Source: a virus (Duplodnaviria; Caudoviricetes). From it: a stretch of DNA of 64,000 nucleotides. The DNA lies in IMG/VR virus record IMGVR_UViG_3300021978_000001, positions 64,001-128,000 of that record; one strand, written 5' to 3'. Of the stretch, positions 11,932-63,757 are shown one piece after another (position 1 is the stretch's first letter; every line of letters starts with the position of its first letter). Under the pieces are notes generated by a model, which was not told the origin of the DNA, ran no database searches, and saw nothing but the letters and a program-made list of their open reading frames with translations. The translations under genes and the position numbers were made by a program.

Positions 11932-14900
11932 TTATGCGAAGTTGTTGTAGGTGTCCTGATCTACCGCCAAGGGCAAGAGATCGGTGACGCCTGCGCCGAT
12001 GGTAAAGTTGGTCGAACCACCCGAGTTGATCGCCGTGTTGCTAAAGAGCGTCGCGACTGCGTTGTTATCCCCCACGACAATCGCGCCCGAGTCTGTCCCG
12101 CTGACATAGTAGTTGCGGAACAAGCTGCCCGTGACGACAAGACGCCGTGGCGTAGCTCCCACCTCATCTTCAGTATAAATGCCATAGTCGCCTTCATACA
12201 ACGTCCCGGCAGCGATCCCAGTGGAGTGAGCGAAGCGACACCCTGTGACGATCACGCTCTCGGTCTCTCCCGTGATGCGGATCGCAGCGTTGGTGTTGTG
12301 GGTGAAATCACAATTCGAGAGTGTCACCTTGGGCTCGGTGTTCAAGCCAACGCCCCCCTCCTCGAACAGCATGATCTCACGCGTCAAGACATTGAGCGCG
12401 GTGCCATCGTTTCCAGGACGCAAGGCCGTGAAGTTGATCGTTGATTCCCCCATCACCAGGCTACCGCCCGTGATCTGAATCAATCGATCCGCGAACGCTA
12501 CCGTAGGTGAGTAGAGCATGGTCACGCCATGCATGGTCGTGGTGCATGTCGTCAGCAACAAACGCCCGGCAAACTCCGAGCCTGTCATCGTGATGGTCCC
12601 CGAGGTCATCTGCAACTCGGGATGGATCGAGGTTCCTCCTCCCGTGAGACCTTCACTCACAAAGCGCGAGTTGGAGATGTTCACTTGAGAGCCGTTTCCT
12701 CCCGAGAGCACCAGGACGTTCTCTGCGTAGGTGTTCTCGAACGAGAGCACCGCTTCCAATCCAGGGAGGAAGTTGAACGAAGAGGTATCCTGGCGCACAT
12801 CAAAGATCTGGCAATCCGAGAAGCTCACCTCTGCGTACTGGAGCGCCGTGCCCGCGAAGTCGTCGATGATGAGCTGGTCATTGCGGTAGCTAAAGCGCGT
12901 CCCCTCTGCCGAGAAGAACAGCTTCGCGCTCGCGCCGGTGCGTGCCACAAACCCGGAATCCTCGGAAAGTACGATGTCACACTGCGTGAAGCGCAACGCA
13001 GGGCCTACCGTGGAGGCATCCACACAGGATACGAGCGGCTGCTCGCCCTCCACCGCAATGAACGAATTGCGCGCTTGCACACTTGACCCTGCACCGTAAA
13101 GTACGATAGCAGGTTCGCGCCCCACGGTCTGATTCCTGGCGAAGAGCACGGAATCCTCGACAATGAGTTTGCTACCTGCGGCGGAGAACTCCACGAGGCG
13201 CTTGATGTCCGGGCTCGTCATCCTCACGCGCCGAAACTCCACGAGCGTCAACGCACTGACAAACGTTTCGATGTCATCGGTAGACTGAATCGTGAGGTCC
13301 TCGAACAAGATCTTGTCAGACGCCGTGGCACCGAGGTTGCGGAACATGTCCGGCGCGGTACCACCTGCCTGTGTACCGAAGTTATCGGTCGAGAGCGTTC
13401 CATTACGAATCGTGACATTGAACGCGCTCGTCGCGCTCCCTGCTGCCAGGCCATCTGACTGACCGAAAGCGAAAGGTCCTGTGCCCGCGCCTCCCGTGTA
13501 CTGTTCTACAGCGAGCGTATGCCCCCCGAGATCGAGGACGGTGTTGGAGGGGATGTACACGACATCGCCCGCAGGCTCGGTCAAGGTGAAGTTTTCGAGG
13601 AGCTTGACGACGAACGCCCCGTCCGGGTTGGTGATCGTCGTGTTCCTGAGCGCGACATAAGCCATCGCGCCCTTGAGCGTTCGGAACATCCCGTTGGCGC
13701 CCACCGTGATGACGTTGGCTTCGAGCTGCTTGTTGGCGTAGCGTCGAATGTCATACAAGTCCTCTGTTGTGATCGAAACGCCATCCCAATCCACTTGCAC
13801 CAGGGGAACGCCCGCGCCCGCGCCCGTCTCGAAGAGAGGATCGAAGGCACCGTCTGTAGAGTCGATCACCGCGAGCGCATACGTCTCGTAACTGAAGTAG
13901 ATGTAGTACGTGCCCACCGGATCACCCGAGAACTCGAACTGAGCCGCTGGCGCCGTACTGATCACCGTACCGCGAAGGTCCGTGAAGTTCGGGTGCTTGA
14001 CCACTGCCTGGGTCACATCGACCCGTGTCGCGGTCCCGAGGCTCGCCACCCCGCCCGAGATAACAAACTTCGGGTAGGTCTCGTTGGTCACCTGCGAGGC
14101 CCCACGCAAGCTCGCATCATAGGGTACACTGCGGCCAGAGGTGCCGCCCGAGAGCCGTACATCCTCGACATCCGATTCGATCTCTTGCGAGGCTGTATCA
14201 TAGCCCCACTCGCGCTCGATGCTCCCATCAAACGCGACTTCCTGGATGATGTTGTACGGCGTGGTTTCGGTGTCCACAGGGATACCGAACCCTGCATGCG
14301 CGTTGCCCGAGCCAAAGAACAGGTCTCCTGTAGCTTCAAAACGCAAGCGCGTTCCTGTCGCGTCGGTCACCGCGTCCACATTGAACGTCTGAGCGCTCAA
14401 GCCGAGCGCTCCCTCTGCGGCGGTGTATGCAGCTTCGAGGGAGGCCGCAAGCGTCGCGGCAGCAGGAGCAGGACCGGCTGCTTGCGTGTAGCCGAAAGGT
14501 ACACCGTTAGCAGTAATCTCGAAGACATCGTTGGCGCCGCCCACGACCACGGGCCAGGTGGACTCGTATGCCGAGAACGCGCGCTTGCGTCCCTCGGTCA
14601 CGCGCCATTCATACTGGCTGTCCGTATCCTGGGAAGGGTCGAGCTTTGGACGCAGGGTGATTCCCAGCGTCCGTGCGCTCTGGCTGTTGTAGAGACCCAT
14701 GGTCAACGCGGTGCGTCCGAGACGACGTGAATCGACCCCGAGGCTGCGCGCTTCGAGCGTGGCGCCCTGGCTGTTGGCGACTGTCGATCCCGACTCGATC
14801 TGGAGCTGCTCGTTGCTCGACTGACCGTGATAAATCGAATCGCCTTCGGTGCTCGGGAGCTGGACCGTCAATCCCTGCTCCCCTACATCGAGGCTGACCT

Positions 14901-16338
14901 TACGTTGTCCCTTGAACGCGGGATTCGGTCCAAGATCCGAGGCATATACCTCGACCCCTTGCGACACCTCTGGCAAGCTGCGTCCATTATGCGCAGCAAA
15001 CACGGCAAACAGGCGAGGGCGTCCGTTGGCGTCCGTGTAATTGTTCGGGTTCAAGTCCCCACCCGCCGCTGGGATTGGCGTCGAGAGGCGAATGAGCCCC
15101 TCGGTATAGTCCACGAACACTTGCTGGGGTCCGGTGACCGAGGGGTCGATCGTGATGTTTTCCAGATCCGTGATCGGGTTATCAAGGTCAGGCACACCAC
15201 CAGCGGTCGCAGGGTACAACGTCATGCCATACCCAGGGACAGGCTCGGTGTTCCCCGCGAGGCTCACATCGAGCGCGAGAGACGCCGCGACACGCGCGCG
15301 CTCCTTGACTTGCGAAGGCGCGATCAGGTTCCTGACACGGATCGTGTCGAGGAGCACGCCATCGTCTGCCTCGAAGATCGAGTTTCCGAGGAACTCATCC
15401 CGCACCGCGAACGGATCATTGGCAAGCTCTCCTACCGTATACACGACCTCGACCGTGGTCGGGAGGTCATCGAGATCGGTCGGAAGCTCGGTTCCATAAA
15501 AGGGATCGAGCACGAGCGTTTCGATGTTTGGCGCGCCTGGGGTGAATGTGACATCCTGCACGTAGTAGAATGACCCCCCGAGCGAAGCCCAGTCCCCCGT
15601 ATTGAAGGTCTGAGGATCATTGTGCGAGGCGACGAGTTGCAGGCGACCTTCCGAGGTCAAGCTCGCGACCACCGAAGAGCTATCCATGGAGACAGCGCTC
15701 GCGCGCGCAGGCCATTCATCCGGCAAGCGCGTCATGTACACCAGAGATTGCGTATCATCATCTCCAGGCCACGCGAGCAAACGCACCGGCTGTGGCAAGA
15801 CCACCTGGTAGTACACGTTCGAGATGCTCCCGAGCGCGCTCGTGTACGCGCGGTCGAGTGTCAGGTTCGCACCCGCAACCGCGTCGATGCCATACGTGTC
15901 CGTATACAGGTTGGCCAGCGACTCGTTGACCCCTGCGGCGTTGGTGATCACCAGGCGGAGATCACTCAGGGTGAAATCCGAGGCGAGGTAGCTCATGTCC
16001 GCGACGCCCGAGGTGAACGTGGTCGAGCTGTTGTTCAGAACACCCGTGGTGCCTTCTGCAACAACGCGCGCACCATAAACATGTGTCTGTTGCACGAGGC
16101 GACGATACCGATAAGGCGTGGTCGCGGGGACCGACTGCGCGAACAAGGCGTAATCATCCACATCACCGAAGAACCGGACATCACCTTGCGAACCGAGCAA
16201 GGGTCCGAACAGGTGCTTTGACGGCGAAGGCACCACACCCGAAGGCAGAGTCTCCTCTTGCGCCGTGAGGTTGTCGTCCGTGCTGGTCTTACCGTCTAGC
16301 GCCTTGCGGACAATATCTTGGTCGAGGCTATCAGCCAT
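11932..16338 (-). CDS. Tail fibre/tailspike-like protein with C-terminal right-handed beta-helix
   Basis: About 1468 aa; C-terminal half has pectin-lyase-like repeats (NVTIRNGTL, ILFEDLTIQ, VTLSNCDF). Confidence 0.8.
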   Translation of the reverse strand: MADSLDQDIVRKALDGKTSTDDNLTAQEETLPSGVVPSPSKHLFGPLLGSQGDVRFFGDVDDYALFAQSVPATTPYRYRRLVQQTHVYGARVVAEGTTGVLNNSSTTFTSGVADMSYLASDFTLSDLRLVITNAAGVNESLANLYTDTYGIDAVAGANLTLDRAYTSALGSISNVYYQVVLPQPVRLLAWPGDDDTQSLVYMTRLPDEWPARASAVSMDSSSVVASLTSEGRLQLVASHNDPQTFNTGDWASLGGSFYYVQDVTFTPGAPNIETLVLDPFYGTELPTDLDDLPTTVEVVYTVGELANDPFAVRDEFLGNSIFEADDGVLLDTIRVRNLIAPSQVKERARVAASLALDVSLAGNTEPVPGYGMTLYPATAGGVPDLDNPITDLENITIDPSVTGPQQVFVDYTEGLIRLSTPIPAAGGDLNPNNYTDANGRPRLFAVFAAHNGRSLPEVSQGVEVYASDLGPNPAFKGQRKVSLDVGEQGLTVQLPSTEGDSIYHGQSSNEQLQIESGSTVANSQGATLEARSLGVDSRRLGRTALTMGLYNSQSARTLGITLRPKLDPSQDTDSQYEWRVTEGRKRAFSAYESTWPVVVGGANDVFEITANGVPFGYTQAAGPAPAAATLAASLEAAYTAAEGALGLSAQTFNVDAVTDATGTRLRFEATGDLFFGSGNAHAGFGIPVDTETTPYNIIQEVAFDGSIEREWGYDTASQEIESDVEDVRLSGGTSGRSVPYDASLRGASQVTNETYPKFVISGGVASLGTATRVDVTQAVVKHPNFTDLRGTVISTAPAAQFEFSGDPVGTYYIYFSYETYALAVIDSTDGAFDPLFETGAGAGVPLVQVDWDGVSITTEDLYDIRRYANKQLEANVITVGANGMFRTLKGAMAYVALRNTTITNPDGAFVVKLLENFTLTEPAGDVVYIPSNTVLDLGGHTLAVEQYTGGAGTGPFAFGQSDGLAAGSATSAFNVTIRNGTLSTDNFGTQAGGTAPDMFRNLGATASDKILFEDLTIQSTDDIETFVSALTLVEFRRVRMTSPDIKRLVEFSAAGSKLIVEDSVLFARNQTVGREPAIVLYGAGSSVQARNSFIAVEGEQPLVSCVDASTVGPALRFTQCDIVLSEDSGFVARTGASAKLFFSAEGTRFSYRNDQLIIDDFAGTALQYAEVSFSDCQIFDVRQDTSSFNFLPGLEAVLSFENTYAENVLVLSGGNGSQVNISNSRFVSEGLTGGGTSIHPELQMTSGTITMTGSEFAGRLLLTTCTTTMHGVTMLYSPTVAFADRLIQITGGSLVMGESTINFTALRPGNDGTALNVLTREIMLFEEGGVGLNTEPKVTLSNCDFTHNTNAAIRITGETESVIVTGCRFAHSTGIAAGTLYEGDYGIYTEDEVGATPRRLVVTGSLFRNYYVSGTDSGAIVVGDNNAVATLFSNTAINSGGSTNFTIGAGVTDLLPLAVDQDTYNNFA

Positions 16339-45760: not shown

Positions 45761-46051
45761 TCAAGACGGATAACGAAACTCACGCACATTATCCCAATAC
45801 GTCTCTTGCGAGTACCGGATCACGCGATGAGAAACCCCGTATTCACTCTGAAGAACCTCGATCACTGCCAACAGCTTCCAGGCACCTATCCCTTCACAGC
45901 TCGCCATGGCATACATATCCCCGCGCCACACCCCACCACTTGCCCTGATGATCTGGAGAAAGTGCAGCGCTTGTGCGTGGATCATGTTCTGAGGCCACTT
46001 GCGTGCCTTGTTTACGGTACGCAGCTCATCATGGAACGCATTAATCAACAT
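45761..46051 (-). CDS. Hypothetical protein
   Basis: GAGG RBS; preceded by an AT-rich inverted-repeat pair. Confidence 0.6.
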   Translation of the reverse strand: MLINAFHDELRTVNKARKWPQNMIHAQALHFLQIIRASGGVWRGDMYAMASCEGIGAWKLLAVIEVLQSEYGVSHRVIRYSQETYWDNVREFRYPS

Positions 46052-46062
46052 AGAGCACCTCG

Positions 46063-46143
46063 ATATTCATTATAATGCATATCAAGACCTTTCGAGCTAC
46101 TTTCGAGACCCGAATTGCACAGAATATGCATTATAATGAATAT
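46063..46143. repeat. Perfect 20-bp inverted repeat pair, each arm containing the palindrome CATTATAATG
   Basis: 46063-46082 is the exact reverse complement of 46124-46143. Confidence 0.9.
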
Positions 46144-46145
46144 GG

Positions 46146-46400
46146 TCACAGGATAGTGTAGCCCTGCTCGGTGAGCCACGCGCGCAACGCGGTAACGTCC
46201 CGGTCGGGGAAGGGGCTGAGACGCACGGTCCGGCCATCTTCGAGCGTGGCCGTCGCCAGGACGTGACTATACCCTGGAAACAGATCACCGACCGCGTATG
46301 CTCCGAGATCCGGGAGCACGAAGCAACTCTGCTGTCGTGGCGGCGTCGCGTACACGGCATGAACGCGGTTTCCCGCTGTGACTCGCATAAAATGATACAT
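46146..46400 (-). CDS. Hypothetical protein (84 aa) directly after the CRISPR trailer repeat
   Basis: AGGAG RBS abuts the degenerate repeat; MYHFMRVTAG... Confidence 0.65.
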   Translation of the reverse strand: MYHFMRVTAGNRVHAVYATPPRQQSCFVLPDLGAYAVGDLFPGYSHVLATATLEDGRTVRLSPFPDRDVTALRAWLTEQGYTIL

Positions 46401-46408
46401 CTCTTTTC

Positions 46409-46730
46409 TCCTAAGCCCCGCATGCGCGGGGAACCTGGTTTGTGCTATCTGGCACGGCGGGCCATCCCCGCATACGCGGGGAACACTCTCTCTTGTCGTC
46501 TCAGTCAACGCCAGGTGTGGGGCCATCCCCGCATACGCGGGGAACACTGCGTGTAGAGTGAGCCCCTCTCTTCCCAAACGGGACCATCCCCGCATGCGCG
46601 GGGAATACGCGAATCAAAATCGAGGTCAAGCCCTTCTTGGCGGACCATCCCCGCATGCGCGGGGAACACTGCGCTTCCTTGTCTTTCTCGTCCTTCGAGC
46701 GCGGACCATCCCCGCATGCGCGGGGAACAC
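46409..46730 (-). CRISPR. Type I-E mini-array: 5 repeats plus 1 degenerate trailer, four 33-nt spacers; no cas genes in the window
   Basis: Repeat GTGTTCCCCGCG(C/T)ATGCGGGGATGG(T/C)CC at 46459, 46520, 46581, 46642, 46703 with an exact 61-bp period; trailer at 46409 after a 22-nt spacer. Confidence 0.95.
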
Positions 46731-46803
46731 TCTGAGACATCTTGTCACAGTTCAGCACGCCGATGACCTCGAACAACACCCATTCCCGAGTGTCAGAGAC
46801 AGA

Positions 46804-46840
46804 AATACCCTACTTGATGGGTGATGTCAAGTAGGGTATT
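46804..46840 (-). promoter_or_regulatory. 14-bp inverted repeat (TACTTGA-N9-TCAAGTA core) containing TTGACA; array leader promoter/operator
   Basis: AATACCCTACTTGA / TCAAGTAGGGTATT. Confidence 0.7.
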
Positions 46841-46876
46841 GAGGATCAGCGCAGGTATTCTTTACTGAGGTACTCC

Positions 46877-48577
46877 TTACTGAGGACCGCGCAGGACATC
46901 GGTGCCGCCGAAGTTATTGACCGAGAACGTCACAGGGTCACCGACCTTCCATTGCTCATAGGTCTCCAGGGATACCTCGAACTCTCTGGAGTACCCATGT
47001 TCAGGCTTGAACGCCTTCGGGTCCTTATCATACCCGAGGGTGACGTAGTAGCTCCCCTTTGTACGCGTGCGCTCGTGGACACCAGGGGACGCCTCGGGCC
47101 AACGGGGCTCGTTGGTACCGCTCAGGTTGTACGTCCCCGCAGAAGCCCAACGCTGCGTCTTGTACTGGCACCAGGGGCGTGTCACGGAGCGCTCGCACAT
47201 GCGGTCCACCACGTCGTGGTCATGGATAGGCTCCTGGTGCGACTTCGTGCATGTCGAGTCTTCCATGGTGTAGGTGATGTCCGTGCACGTCGTGTTCTCC
47301 CAGGTGCGCACGCGCTTACGGCACGTCGAATCCACCATCTTGGTGCAATAGGTAGTCACGCAAGAGCGCTTGGCCGATCCGTTGGATTTGCGCTTCGTCG
47401 AGCACTTCTCTCCACAGGCCACGCGCTCCGCCTTGCGACAGGACACCATCTTGGTCTCCCAGATCGGCTTCTTGCATGGCTTGACCTTCTCGTGTCGGAC
47501 ACGCTTTTTACACGGCTCCTCGGTGACCACGGTCTTCATGTGGCGGCATGCCACCTCACGCTGGCCACACACATACTGCTCGTTGTGGTGATGCTTGGGC
47601 GCGCATGACACGATATGCACACCCGCGCGCTCACCTGTGCCTTTCGTGGGCGGCACCTCGGGGATCTCTCGGATGTTCTCTTGCCAGTCTTCCTTGTACA
47701 CGTTCTCCCAACGCTCGACGTACAACGTGCGCTCCCAACGCATGGCTTCGACGTTGCCGTCCACCTCGTGTGAGGTACATCCCCACCGCAAGAACAGGAT
47801 GAGCCCCGAGATCATGCCTCCCCAGAAGAGGACGAACATCACCCGGTGAGGGATGTACCGAACCTGTGACGTGGACTTCGGCGCCACGGGTTCGATCCGT
47901 GGGATCTTCATCTCGGGCGGATCTTCGGGTGTCTCGTGCGCTTCTGCCTCCTGCGCTTCTGCCTCCTGCGCGTCAGCATTCTGAGCATCATACTCGACCG
48001 AACTCGGGAGGTCGGTATCTTCCCACTCGGGGCGCGCTTCATGCGTCTCTTCTTTCATCTGCGCCTTGAACGCAGAGCGCCCTTCTTGTGCGCGTTCGAG
48101 CTGACTCGCATGCGCATCGTCCATGTCAAAGGACAGCCCTTGCGCCGCGCGCATTCCGGCATACTCACCAAACTGTTCCACAAGGAACGCAGACACGCCC
48201 TGGTCCCCGTCCATGTAAGCCTGGAAGGTCTCGTAATCGAGCGCGTCTCTCAGGTCATCATCGGAAGCTCCACGGCTCGCATGACAATGATGACACTCGC
48301 GCTCATCGGCGTAGTTATCCGCCTGACAGTTGGTGCAGAACCAGCTCGCCCCGAGGTCCCCGAAGCGCGCTTCCTCTTCAGGCGTGAACGCGCGCTCCTC
48401 GTGGTTCCACTCATCCCAGGACTCATCATCACCCGGGAGATAGGCGTTATCGAACTCGACGAAGGTTCTTGTATGGCCACACTCCGGGCACGAACGGTGG
48501 CGCGGGCTACAGGGTATCCCTTGCAGTCCGCAGTCCGTACAATCCCAGAGCATCCAATAGGAGGTATCTCTACTCAT
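46877..48577 (-). CDS. Membrane protein with RanBP2-type Zn fingers and Cys-rich extracytoplasmic domain
   Basis: WDCTDC..CPECG, WFCTNC..CHHC, central TM, many C-terminal Cys. Confidence 0.8.
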   Translation of the reverse strand: MSRDTSYWMLWDCTDCGLQGIPCSPRHRSCPECGHTRTFVEFDNAYLPGDDESWDEWNHEERAFTPEEEARFGDLGASWFCTNCQADNYADERECHHCHASRGASDDDLRDALDYETFQAYMDGDQGVSAFLVEQFGEYAGMRAAQGLSFDMDDAHASQLERAQEGRSAFKAQMKEETHEARPEWEDTDLPSSVEYDAQNADAQEAEAQEAEAHETPEDPPEMKIPRIEPVAPKSTSQVRYIPHRVMFVLFWGGMISGLILFLRWGCTSHEVDGNVEAMRWERTLYVERWENVYKEDWQENIREIPEVPPTKGTGERAGVHIVSCAPKHHHNEQYVCGQREVACRHMKTVVTEEPCKKRVRHEKVKPCKKPIWETKMVSCRKAERVACGEKCSTKRKSNGSAKRSCVTTYCTKMVDSTCRKRVRTWENTTCTDITYTMEDSTCTKSHQEPIHDHDVVDRMCERSVTRPWCQYKTQRWASAGTYNLSGTNEPRWPEASPGVHERTRTKGSYYVTLGYDKDPKAFKPEHGYSREFEVSLETYEQWKVGDPVTFSVNNFGGTDVLRGPQ

Positions 48578-50956: not shown

Positions 50957-51805
50957 TCACCCCTTGTAAAGGCGAAGCCTGCGCGTCAAGGGGTCGAGGT
51001 CTTCTGGATAATGAGGACCGATCGCGAGCGCGGTCACGGTAGGCTCATCGAACACCGTGCGCCCTTCATCCTCGATCAAGGCTACACGCAGCCCTTTCGC
51101 GACCGCTTTCGCATGCAAGTTGCGGAGCGCCTCTTCACTCTTGACGCCCACCACGATCTTGGCATACGAGCCTTCGCGCCATGCGACATCCTCCGCGCGC
51201 ATGTTCATCTGGAGCTGGCCATGCCCCGCGTGCGGTCCTGCGGTGTTCCCGCTCCCCTGGACGGCACCCTGGAGGAACGCTTCGAGAGACGCATGCGCGG
51301 CTTGCGCGGCTGCTTTCCCGGGGGGCATCTCCAGGTCCTTTCGCAAGACGATCACTTGTTTGGGCTCACCTTTGACCTCGCGCGCGGGCTTTGCTTCGGG
51401 CGCGGGGTTACGTCGAGCTTGCGCCATGGCATCAGCAGACACATTTTTCATGCACAGGTGCGAGGTGAGCCCTCCCAGGAGTCTCCCTGCTTCGTTGGTA
51501 TGCGTACACACCGTCCCTACCACCCTGGCGGGCTTGGTCAGGGAAGCGAACTTCTGCCCCTCTACGGGTTCTGTGCAGTCGTTCCACGACCCTTCGAGCG
51601 CGACAAGGTACACCCCCGCGCCCGCCCATGTACCATCGACCATCTTGAGCGCGCCCTTGATGTAAATGAGGTACTGCAAGGCGCTCTCCAACGTGGGCCA
51701 CACCGAACCTCCCACATCTTTATAGAAGGGCGTATGCTTCCATTGCTCGTATTGCGGGAGGTTTCCAATCGTGTAGGCTTGCTTGCCCGGCCATGTGTCT
51801 TCCAT
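50957..51805 (-). CDS. pth2: Peptidyl-tRNA hydrolase Pth2 (C-terminal) fused to an unknown N-terminal domain
   Basis: KQVIVLRKDLEMPPGKAAAQAAHAS...KIVVGV...IEDEGRT...TALAIGP. Confidence 0.9.
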   Translation of the reverse strand: MEDTWPGKQAYTIGNLPQYEQWKHTPFYKDVGGSVWPTLESALQYLIYIKGALKMVDGTWAGAGVYLVALEGSWNDCTEPVEGQKFASLTKPARVVGTVCTHTNEAGRLLGGLTSHLCMKNVSADAMAQARRNPAPEAKPAREVKGEPKQVIVLRKDLEMPPGKAAAQAAHASLEAFLQGAVQGSGNTAGPHAGHGQLQMNMRAEDVAWREGSYAKIVVGVKSEEALRNLHAKAVAKGLRVALIEDEGRTVFDEPTVTALAIGPHYPEDLDPLTRRLRLYKG

Positions 51806-55993: not shown

Positions 55994-56038
55994 CTCTTGA
56001 GACTGACACTAAGAATGAATGCGAACCCTGAAGGAAAG

Positions 56039-56110
56039 TGACCGTGGGGGGAATCGAACCCCCAACCATGGCTTTTAGAGAGCCTTGCTCTGCCGTTGAG
56101 CTACACGGTC
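56039..56110 (-). tRNA. Amber suppressor tRNA (anticodon CUA)
   Basis: GACCGTG-TA-GCTC AACGGCA GAGC-A-AGGCT CTCTAAA AGCCA-TGGTT-GGGGG TTCGATT CCCCC-CACGGTC-A. Confidence 0.92.
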
Positions 56111-59308: not shown

Positions 59309-59514
59309 GGATAAAGCCTCCAGGAATTTCTGCCTGGCTTCGCCTTACACGCAGAGTGGCTACGTGTAAGGTATAGGAGGTTGCACGGGATTGAACCGTG
59401 CTATCGCTCATGTCAGCCCGAAGGCACCACGCGCGAATTATCCGAGAACCATAAACCCGGCATTTCGACACGCCGTTTGGTCTCCTGAATGTCGATGTGG
59501 TTGCATGCGAGGCG

Positions 59515-59542
59515 GGACCATCCCCTCATACGAGGGGAACAT
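59515..59542 (-). CRISPR. Solitary type I-E repeat with compensatory stem change
   Basis: Plus strand GGACCATCCCCTCATACGAGGGGAACAT; a G-C pair is replaced by T-A. Confidence 0.88.
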
Positions 59543-63017: not shown

Positions 63018-63051
63018 ACAAATGAGTGTGCTGTTCCTGTGCCCCGGCGCC

Positions 63052-63195
63052 GGACCATCCCCGCATACGCGGGGAACACGCTCCACAACACACTCGGGCG
63101 CCTGGGTATACCCACGACGCAGATCCGCTTGACGGTGGAGCGACAGGCGGAAGTGGTACGGCAAGGCGAACCATCCCCGCGCACGCGGGGAACAT
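63052..63195 (-). CRISPR. Two type I-E repeats (63168-63195, 63052-63079) flanking an 88-nt insert
   Basis: 63052 copy is near-identical to the array repeats; followed by 34 nt and then tRNA-Met. Confidence 0.88.
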
Positions 63196-63630: not shown

Positions 63631-63666
63631 GTGATGTGCTTGCTCGGATAAGGGAAGTGGCGAGCG

Positions 63667-63757
63667 GCGCCATCCCCGCATGCGCGGGGAACACTAAATC
63701 TGAACAAACACAAGCAGAGCGCCCGAGATGAACCATCCCAGCATATGCAGGGAAATC
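63667..63757 (-). CRISPR. Two type I-E repeats (63730-63757 degenerate, 63667-63694) with a 35-nt spacer
   Basis: Followed by 36 nt and then tRNA-Val. Confidence 0.8.

Follow-up and report, generated by a model that had tools for sequence, protein, structure and literature searches.

A probable satellite crRNA array of an acquisition-less type I-E CRISPR-Cas system in a 437-kb phage genome, ending in a hairpin at the downstream gene's ribosome-binding site

Introduction

CRISPR-Cas systems with compact arrays and without an adaptation module are a known class in huge phages (PMC7162821; PMC11656645). According to the first of these reports, most huge-phage systems are devoid of Cas1, Cas2 and Cas4, and their arrays are compact, with a median of six repeats (Al-Shayeb et al. 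2020; PMC7162821). It is poorly understood how these systems remain current and how they express their arrays. Viral arrays also occur without any cas genes: the Saccharolobus portogloboviruses SPV1 and SPV2 carry mini-arrays that use host Cas proteins, with one or two spacers matching related viruses (PMC11656645). Concerning acquisition, plasmid type IV-A3 systems acquire spacers in trans through the type I-E Cas1-Cas2 of their host, as established by experiment (Benz et al. 2024, cited in PMC11656645).

The window analysed here, a stretch of 64,000 nucleotides, spans positions 64001-128000 of a virus record that is complete at 437,490 bp and has direct terminal repeats. It contains a run of 13 tRNA genes, as is typical of very large phages, and a small CRISPR array on its minus strand. 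From the evidence below, we consider it probable that this array is a satellite, supplying crRNAs to an acquisition-less type I-E system that the phage itself encodes.

As far as the available text of the huge-phage survey describes those systems (PMC7162821), the present one resembles them in its genome of more than 200 kb, its own effector genes, its compact array with six repeats, the missing adaptation genes (Cas1 and Cas2 being those checked here) and the presumed role, an attack on competing elements. In contrast, the systems reported in that text belong to a type I-C variant and to class 2, whereas this one is of type I-E, and its repeats are dispersed over about 14 arrays or solo repeats, some of them interleaved with cas genes. 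Most of these arrays end in a hairpin on the ribosome-binding site (RBS) of the next gene, a design of which no description was found in the available parts of the two reports (PMC7162821; PMC11656645). The array is comparable to the SPV1/SPV2 mini-arrays (PMC11656645) as a short viral array far from cas genes, with its own promoter and probably engaged in conflict between elements; it differs from them in that this phage has cognate cas genes, and that its four spacers plus a remnant do not match the sampled sister strains. With the plasmid type IV-A3 systems, as the available text presents them (PMC11656645), it shares the condition of a CRISPR system on a mobile element that has no adaptation module and whose arrays gain spacers; however, this is a phage type I-E system, and the in-trans step, experimental in the plasmids, is proposed here from strain comparison alone. 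The features that set the locus apart are the dispersed arrays, the recurrent ending on an RBS hairpin and a polarised spacer turnover without phage integrase genes, raising the question of who inserts spacers in a phage that has no integrase.

A small type I-E array on the minus strand

A repeat finder returned six copies at window positions 46407-46731, with start-to-start spacings of 50, 61, 61, 61 and 61, while a tandem-repeat finder did not detect the array, as expected for interspaced repeats. The first-pass annotation had described five repeats at an exact 61-bp period and a degenerate trailer, and the alignment in register agrees on both points, giving the following elements:

46458-46730, minus strand: five canonical 29-nt repeats and four 32-nt spacers (repeat finder and register alignment)
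46702-46730, minus strand: R1, 29-nt repeat
46670-46701, minus strand: S1, 32-nt spacer
46641-46669, minus strand: R2, 29-nt repeat
46609-46640, minus strand: S2, 32-nt spacer
46580-46608, minus strand: R3, 29-nt repeat
46548-46579, minus strand: S3, 32-nt spacer
46519-46547, minus strand: R4, 29-nt repeat
46487-46518, minus strand: S4, 32-nt spacer
46458-46486, minus strand: R5, 29-nt repeat
46437-46457, minus strand: trailer segment of 21 nt, a short pseudo-spacer by the register of the repeats
46408-46436, minus strand: terminal pseudo-repeat, the sixth and degenerate copy, with the Cas6e-type hairpin kept (stem-loop 46431-46416)

Read on the minus strand, the 29-nt repeat is GTGTTCCCCGCGCATGCGGGGATGGTCCG and displays the type I-E architecture: a GC stem of 6-7 bp (CCCCGC/GCGGGG), a 4-nt loop and the 8-nt handle ATGGTCCG ending in CCG. 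The minus strand is taken as the transcribed one because it is the reverse complement of the repeat that is I-E-like. Repeat length, stem, loop and handle, as well as the 32-nt spacers, the 61-bp period and the variable last base of the repeat, are those of the type I-E system of E. coli K-12. The repeat architecture, the spacer length and the period show that this is a genuine, small CRISPR array and confirm its earlier assignment to type I-E.

R1 and R2 are identical to each other and to the exact genome-wide consensus; the remaining repeats carry two or three differences and the degenerate copy eight, in accordance with the earlier remark that the leader-side repeats are the closest to consensus. 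Position 29 varies with the spacer, being G, G, C, C and G from R1 to R5. In E. coli type I-E, the last base of the repeat arrives with each new spacer; therefore, both the variable position 29 and the identity of R1 and R2 fit an insertion of the I-E type. In the folding prediction, the transcript forms the repeat hairpins (z = -3.4 relative to shuffled sequences).

Across the phage genome, about 70 copies of this repeat are present, all on the minus strand except for one weak match. The 63 canonical copies make up about 14 arrays or solo repeats, all in one orientation, located at 13-31 kb, 110 kb (the array studied here), 123-128 kb, 149 kb and 405-409 kb of the genome. In contrast to E. 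coli K-12, these 63 copies comprise 54 distinct sequences, the loop and position 29 being the most variable. The pair formed by positions 10 and 17 is G-C in 48 copies, A-U in 14 and U-A in one, with no mismatch, and a census of the hairpin (TT, a C-rich 6-bp stem and a 4-nt loop) counted 72 on the minus strand and none on the plus strand. This covariation without mismatch, together with the strand bias, indicates that the repeat hairpin is under selection. The 54 natural variants would map the tolerance of the Cas6e that recognises them.

The phage encodes its own interference module

The array had been annotated as Cas-less and as borrowing the Cascade of the host. The searches are consistent with a window free of cas genes, and the array stands far from any: in family searches over the whole phage genome, all matches to cas families, which score above the curated cut-offs, lie at 13.6-22.3 kb, about 90 kb away. 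However, a search of the rest of the genome, where the first-pass annotation had itself named a complete cas operon as the refuting result, recovered a full interference module, with cas3, cas7e, cas6e, cas5e and a cse1::cse2 fusion, and only cas1 and cas2 missing. The Cas-less reading therefore falls, since the phage genome itself encodes the cognate interference module.

Profile searches of the whole genome identified Cas3 (E 5e-59), Cas7e (E 8e-51), Cas6e (E 3e-27) and Cse1 (E 6e-16), all on the minus strand within the 13.6-22.3 kb region. A Pfam scan of the ORFs added Cas5 (E 1e-37) and the HD, helicase and C-terminal domains of the Cas3 ORF; in the Cse1 ORF (725 aa) it revealed a fused Cse2 domain at the C-terminus. 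No match to Cas1 or Cas2 was obtained at E <= 1 in the complete genome (PF01867, TIGR03638, PF09707 and PF09827). Along the transcript, the order is cas3, cas7e, array, cas6e, array, cas5e, cse1::cse2, array, and the consensus of these interleaved arrays is the sequence of R1 and R2. Aligned with E. coli CasE, the phage Cas6e keeps both the catalytic His20 (YALHQ versus YQLHQ) and the glycine-rich loop.

In its components, the module is thus like that of E. coli K-12, with the catalytic histidine of Cas6e, Cas7, Cas5, Cse1, Cse2 and an HD-helicase Cas3. It differs in the missing cas1 and cas2, in the fusion of Cse1 and Cse2, in the gene order with its intercalated arrays (cas3-cas7-array-cas6e-array-cas5-cse1::cse2-array) and in a Cas7e that is only about 28% identical to its nearest bacterial homologue. 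Apart from a sister-strain Cas7e at 90% identity, no sequence comes closer to it than about 28%, the best of the others being from a Myxococcales MAG. Given the fusion and the strong divergence of Cas7e, it is doubtful whether this Cascade would behave canonically.

From this gene content, the phage Cas6e would cleave each hairpin at its 3' base, giving four standard crRNAs and perhaps a short one; the 21-nt trailer unit would yield a non-standard crRNA. These crRNAs would be loaded into the phage Cascade (Cas7e, Cas5e and the Cse1-Cse2 fusion) and would recruit the phage Cas3 against foreign DNA. By analogy with other huge phages, the targets are most likely to be rival phages or other mobile elements.

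The earlier proposal, in which the array works with a host type I-E Cascade against competing elements or host genes, must be weighed against this module. Viral mini-arrays of such a kind are documented (PMC11656645), the array lies 90 kb from the phage cas genes under a promoter of its own, and, since the I-E repeat class is widespread, a compatible Cas6e and Cascade could conceivably exist in a host. Nevertheless, the full cognate module of the phage has within it arrays that share both the repeat and the leader junction; the documented mini-arrays have one or two spacers in cas-less genomes, as opposed to four and a remnant in a genome with about 14 arrays or solo repeats; and no host was identified. 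We therefore regard a dependence on host Cascade as quite improbable.

The hairpins could also act as RNA decoys that soak up the Cas6e or Cascade of a host type I-E system, as Racr-like anti-CRISPRs would, with spacers of no relevance. RNA anti-CRISPRs derived from single repeat units are known (PMC11656645), and solitary repeats of this class are present at other places in the genome as well as in Streptomyces phages. However, a decoy does not need a regular array of five repeats with exact 32-nt spacers, a polarised turnover (see below) or a PAM-like variable position 29, and it would titrate the phage's own Cas6e as well, which makes this explanation very improbable. The array is better interpreted as a satellite of the phage-encoded system.

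The promoter, the leader and the leader-repeat junction

The region between R1 and the upstream gene contains the following elements:

46877-48577, minus strand: upstream flanking gene, 566 aa as called, no family (ORF call and family searches)
46805-46839, without strand: perfect 13-bp palindrome over the promoter, with arms at 46805-46817 and 46827-46839 (sequence reading)
46825-46830, minus strand: -35-like hexamer TTGACA (sequence reading and recurrence of the arrangement in the genome)
46802-46807, minus strand: -10-like hexamer TATTTC, 17 nt past the -35, of putative function (sequence reading and comparison within the promoter class)
46731-46795, minus strand: leader, of about 65 nt if transcription begins just past the -10 (position relative to R1)
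46731-46749, minus strand: leader-repeat junction TGTGACAAGATGTCTCAGA, the last 19 nt of the leader, conserved among arrays

The TTGACA noticed previously in the leader is present at 46830-46825 on the minus strand. The claim that the leader has a promoter of its own holds in part: there is a plausible promoter-like element, but a strict scan for the sigma-70 consensus does not call it, because its -10 lacks the final T. The arrangement TTGAC(A/G), 17-18 nt, TAyyyT also precedes other arrays (at genome positions 405933, 405120 and 23375), often together with the palindrome, and is found on both strands before sites that are not arrays (e.g., 120988, 182266 and 361699). Since this arrangement recurs across the genome, we infer that the array uses a general promoter class of this phage.

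Palindromes similar to that at 46805-46839, of the form ACTTGACA...TGTCAAGT, are located at genome positions 405933, 405120, 120988 and 23375, and a sister strain (L057) keeps the promoter palindrome with two changes in the loop. The stop codon of the 566-aa upstream gene lies 37 nt before it. The palindrome is a candidate operator and/or a candidate terminator of that gene.

The 19-nt junction TGTGACAAGATGTCTCAGA is repeated almost exactly at the arrays at genome positions 23279, 17018, 13616 and 18125 and at the solo repeat at 405031. Some of the arrays that share it begin only 25-35 nt after the stop codon of a cas gene; therefore, TGTGACAAGATGTCTCAGA represents a minimal leader-repeat junction. 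In bacterial arrays of the same repeat class, this phage junction was absent.

Taken together, these elements suggest that transcription would proceed on the minus strand from the TTGACA-17 nt-TATTTC promoter embedded in the 13-bp palindrome, through the leader of about 65 nt. The transcript would comprise five repeats, four 32-nt spacers, the 21-nt remnant and the hairpin-only pseudo-repeat, and would continue into a gene of 84 aa.

The terminal hairpin and the downstream gene

That gene, P0001, is arranged as follows:

46146-46400, minus strand, ATG at 46400: P0001, 84 aa, a lineage-specific ORFan

In the terminal pseudo-repeat, CTTAGGAG stands in place of the 3' handle and includes the RBS AGGAG (46412-46408); next come AAAAGAG and the ATG of P0001, so that AGGAG stands 7 nt before the start codon. 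P0001 is open in four strains, with 83-94% identity, and is therefore a real lineage-specific gene, presumably translated from the array transcript. It belongs to no Pfam or PHROG family; the Atlas gave no hit of use for it and a poor model. An alternative ORF starting inside the pseudo-repeat (46097-46423) was rejected, as its composition looks out of frame.

The ending is not particular to this array. Of the oriented hairpins in the genome, 63 have the canonical handle and nine do not. Eight of these nine close an array, and in seven of the eight a purine-rich RBS and a start codon follow 10-26 nt downstream; one such hairpin-RBS-start unit precedes cas6e. The unit before P0001 is kept in three sister strains, and the change observed in its loop preserves the stem. 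The recurrence of this design suggests that the CRISPR endoribonuclease also matures or gates mRNAs.

By comparison with the canonical repeats, Cas6e is predicted to cut the pseudo-repeat between 46416 and 46415. Position 22, which adjoins the scissile bond, is a C instead of an A, and cleavage at this site is therefore uncertain. The last hairpin ends 3 nt before the Shine-Dalgarno sequence of P0001, where a cut by Cas6e would create the 5' end of an mRNA; a Cas6e that binds and does not cut would occupy the ribosome-binding site and could gate the mRNA. Since Cas6e would either free the RBS by cutting or cover it by binding, translation of P0001 would be coupled to crRNA production either way. 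In synthetic biology, engineered Cas6/Csy4 hairpins placed before RBSs serve as RNA-processing insulators, the cleavage giving an mRNA with a defined 5' end. The phage units are similar to these in having a Cas6-family hairpin just upstream of an RBS; they differ in being natural, recurrent and located at the 3' end of crRNA arrays, with a cleavage that is predicted.

Polarised spacer turnover among strains

Sister strains occur in seawater, aquatic and marine metagenomes of other studies. No sister phage was found with the flanking protein, the leader motif, Cas7e or megablast in the viral collection, from which near records may have been withheld. The informative sister loci are:

L063: downstream region about 95% identical to the phage in nucleotides; at least four spacers, all different from those of the window; ends in the hairpin-RBS-ATG unit
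L065: about 93% identical in nucleotides; its trailer-most spacer is common to L063 and L065
L064: P0001 82-83% identical; at least three spacers, none shared with the window, followed by the 21-nt segment and the pseudo-repeat
L057: the other side of the L064 locus, from the same sample; same palindromic promoter, with an extra tRNA gene before it

The 21-nt segment of L064 has a single mismatch to that of the window, and the pseudo-repeat is changed in its loop with the stem intact. Contigs from two further studies bridge the array locus with different content; one (X7) starts inside a repeat, and the array there has at least one spacer. Two loci (L055 and L056) were rejected as independent strains, since they represent a single genome (100% identity over 12 kb). 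More distant relatives, on contigs of 79-456 kb, have a homologue of the flanking protein (43-47% identical) with another gene directly after it; these showed no array at the homologous junction and no repeat within 13 kb.

At the level of these sequences, the comparison shows a polarised turnover: leader-side spacers are specific to each strain, and trailer units are shared. As the trailer units persist and the leader-side spacers are replaced between strains, the array appears to grow at its leader end.

This polarity bears on a further explanation, in which the array is a Cas6e-processed 5' UTR cassette controlling the 84-aa gene, or a neutral relic, with spacers that have no targets. Across strains, no part of the locus is better conserved than the hairpin-RBS-ATG unit, the hairpin-RBS design recurs before seven other genes, and none of the spacers of the array yielded a target (see below). 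In contrast, the exact 32-nt spacers and the identical leader-side repeats indicate continuing insertion rather than drift, the leader-side spacers are wholly replaced between strains that are 93-95% identical in nucleotides, and mRNA processing would need one hairpin only. A cassette or relic is therefore unlikely, and a functional satellite array of the phage system remains the preferred interpretation.

Leader-end growth in a phage without Cas1-Cas2 leads us to propose integration in trans. New spacers would be installed by a type I-E Cas1-Cas2 of the host, recognising the conserved leader-repeat junction; that the host of this phage has such enzymes is an assumption, and it counts against the proposal that the phage junction is missing from the bacterial arrays of this repeat class. 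Alternatively, repeat-spacer units could be imported by recombination between repeats. Integration in trans by host Cas1-Cas2, which has an experimental precedent in the plasmid type IV-A3 systems, seems the most likely source of the new units.

These proposals can be joined into a broader and more tentative one, which we consider possible, if rather doubtful: that Cas6e hairpins serve as RNA punctuation throughout the genome, closing each mini-array on the RBS of the following gene, cas6e included, and so linking translation of these genes to crRNA processing, and that the arrays gain spacers through a hijacked host I-E integrase acting at the 19-nt junction. If true, the hairpin would be a natural Cas6-based insulator of gene expression, and this phage the first virus to update its own CRISPR memory with host enzymes. 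If the coupling to translation and the in-trans acquisition both hold, they would matter for the ecology of conflict between phages and would provide natural parts for RNA-processing tools; if they fail, the locus would be one more huge-phage array of the usual, known kind.

Targets, expression and host

The earlier impression that no spacer has a full-length match within the window is correct and extends to the whole 437-kb genome, where the spacers of the array match nothing beyond noise. Likewise, all 51 spacers of the phage gave noise against its own genome, apart from two variant spacers that form a pair across two arrays; this variant family had no match in the viral collection.

The spacer search for targets and an AAG-type PAM, recommended in the first-pass annotation, was run and yielded no credible protospacer or PAM. 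In the viral collection, S1, S3 and S4 had no match over their first 23 nt with every sixth position left free. Over the same 23 nt, S2 matched a tape-measure/minor-tail gene in three homologous contigs (21/23 nt). It was rejected as a protospacer, as zero to two of the last 9 nt agree and the PAM side reads CTT and not AAG; we judge the match to be due to chance or, at best, to a distant homologue of the true target. S1 and S2 (29 nt) had no match in the metagenome collection, and the array of the window and two sister arrays retrieved repeat-only matches among annotated phages and plasmids. Between strains, seven sister-strain spacers gave noise against this phage, and the spacers of the window had no match in the fetched sister and relative loci, which cover parts of the sister genomes.

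One small metatranscriptome of the source sample contained nothing at the array locus and bears neither way on its expression.

The repeat was also compared with bacterial arrays, as had been suggested for predicting the host. The repeat class was recovered in 39 loci, mostly from Actinomycetota, with Burkholderiales and Desulfovibrionales MAGs in addition; since it is spread over so many bacteria, the repeat is not diagnostic and is too widespread to name a host. Separately, the names attached to distant homologues provide weak hints of a Myxococcota host.

Sequence elements flanking the array

The array of five 29-nt type I-E repeats (window 46458-46730, minus strand) lies between an 84-aa gene, P0001, on its downstream side and a gene for a 566-aa protein on its upstream side, and sequence features of note were found beyond P0001 and from the stop codon of the upstream gene to the palindromic promoter of the array:

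Window 46063-46082 and 46124-46143: pair of 20-bp near-palindromes, AT-rich, both containing CATTATAATG
Window 46853-46885: 15-nt tandem duplication, 2.2 copies, overlapping the stop codon of the 566-aa upstream gene
L057:9740-9830 (sister-strain contig covering the upstream side of the locus): tRNA gene between the upstream gene and the palindromic promoter

The junction between the upstream gene and the array promoter is an insertion hotspot. One copy of the tandem duplication is missing in the sister strain, and the tRNA inserted there has an anticodon loop that is Gln-like by eye. On the other side, the near-palindromes are mutual reverse complements at a spacing of exactly 61 bp and occupy the gap that separates the stop codon of P0001 from the next gene, which starts at 46051 on the minus strand. 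Located 3' of P0001, this pair looks like a regulated promoter or an operator pair.

Promoter and repeat copies outside the arrays

Both the promoter and the repeat of the array recur in the window:

Window 56988 (genome 120988), minus strand: near-perfect copy of the array-type palindromic promoter, ACTTGACA, 7 nt, CATCAAGT, then AAGGTACCC
Window 59514-59542, 63051-63079, 63167-63195, 63666-63694 and 63729-63757, all minus strand: solitary or paired copies of the array's repeat

Since no array was found within 10 kb downstream of the promoter copy, this class of palindromic promoter is not array-specific. The five repeat copies lie within the window's tRNA cluster, in the gaps between its tRNA genes. 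A tRNA with the anticodon CTA (amber suppressor) is found at window 56038-56110, and a PTH2-domain protein (PF01981) is encoded at 50957-51805.

A repeat of the I-E class with about 96% identity to that of the phage studied here also occurs in small cultured Streptomyces phages (Piccadilly, Ignacio, Vondra and others); each has one or two unannotated copies (e.g., OL455886.1:34716-34745), which are candidate solitary repeat units.

The phage cas locus and arrays outside the window

The cas genes of this phage lie outside the window and are interleaved with arrays. One of them encodes a fusion protein:

Genome 13651-15828 (L014:1651-3828, a piece of the phage genome), minus strand: Cse1-Cse2 fusion, a single 725-aa protein

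Its residues 5-475 correspond to PF09481 and residues 621-711 to PF09485. Two arrays contain variants of one spacer (genome 28873-28904 and 25917-25948). The variants agree over their first 17 nt and differ at 5 of 32 positions, and the repeat preceding each is of one and the same variant, which starts with ATG. The pair suggests that a conserved target has been followed in two versions; no target of the pair was found in the viral collection. Finally, in the array at 31 kb the last "spacer" (genome 30948-30999) has a length of 52 nt, and about 19 nt of sequence are directly duplicated within it.
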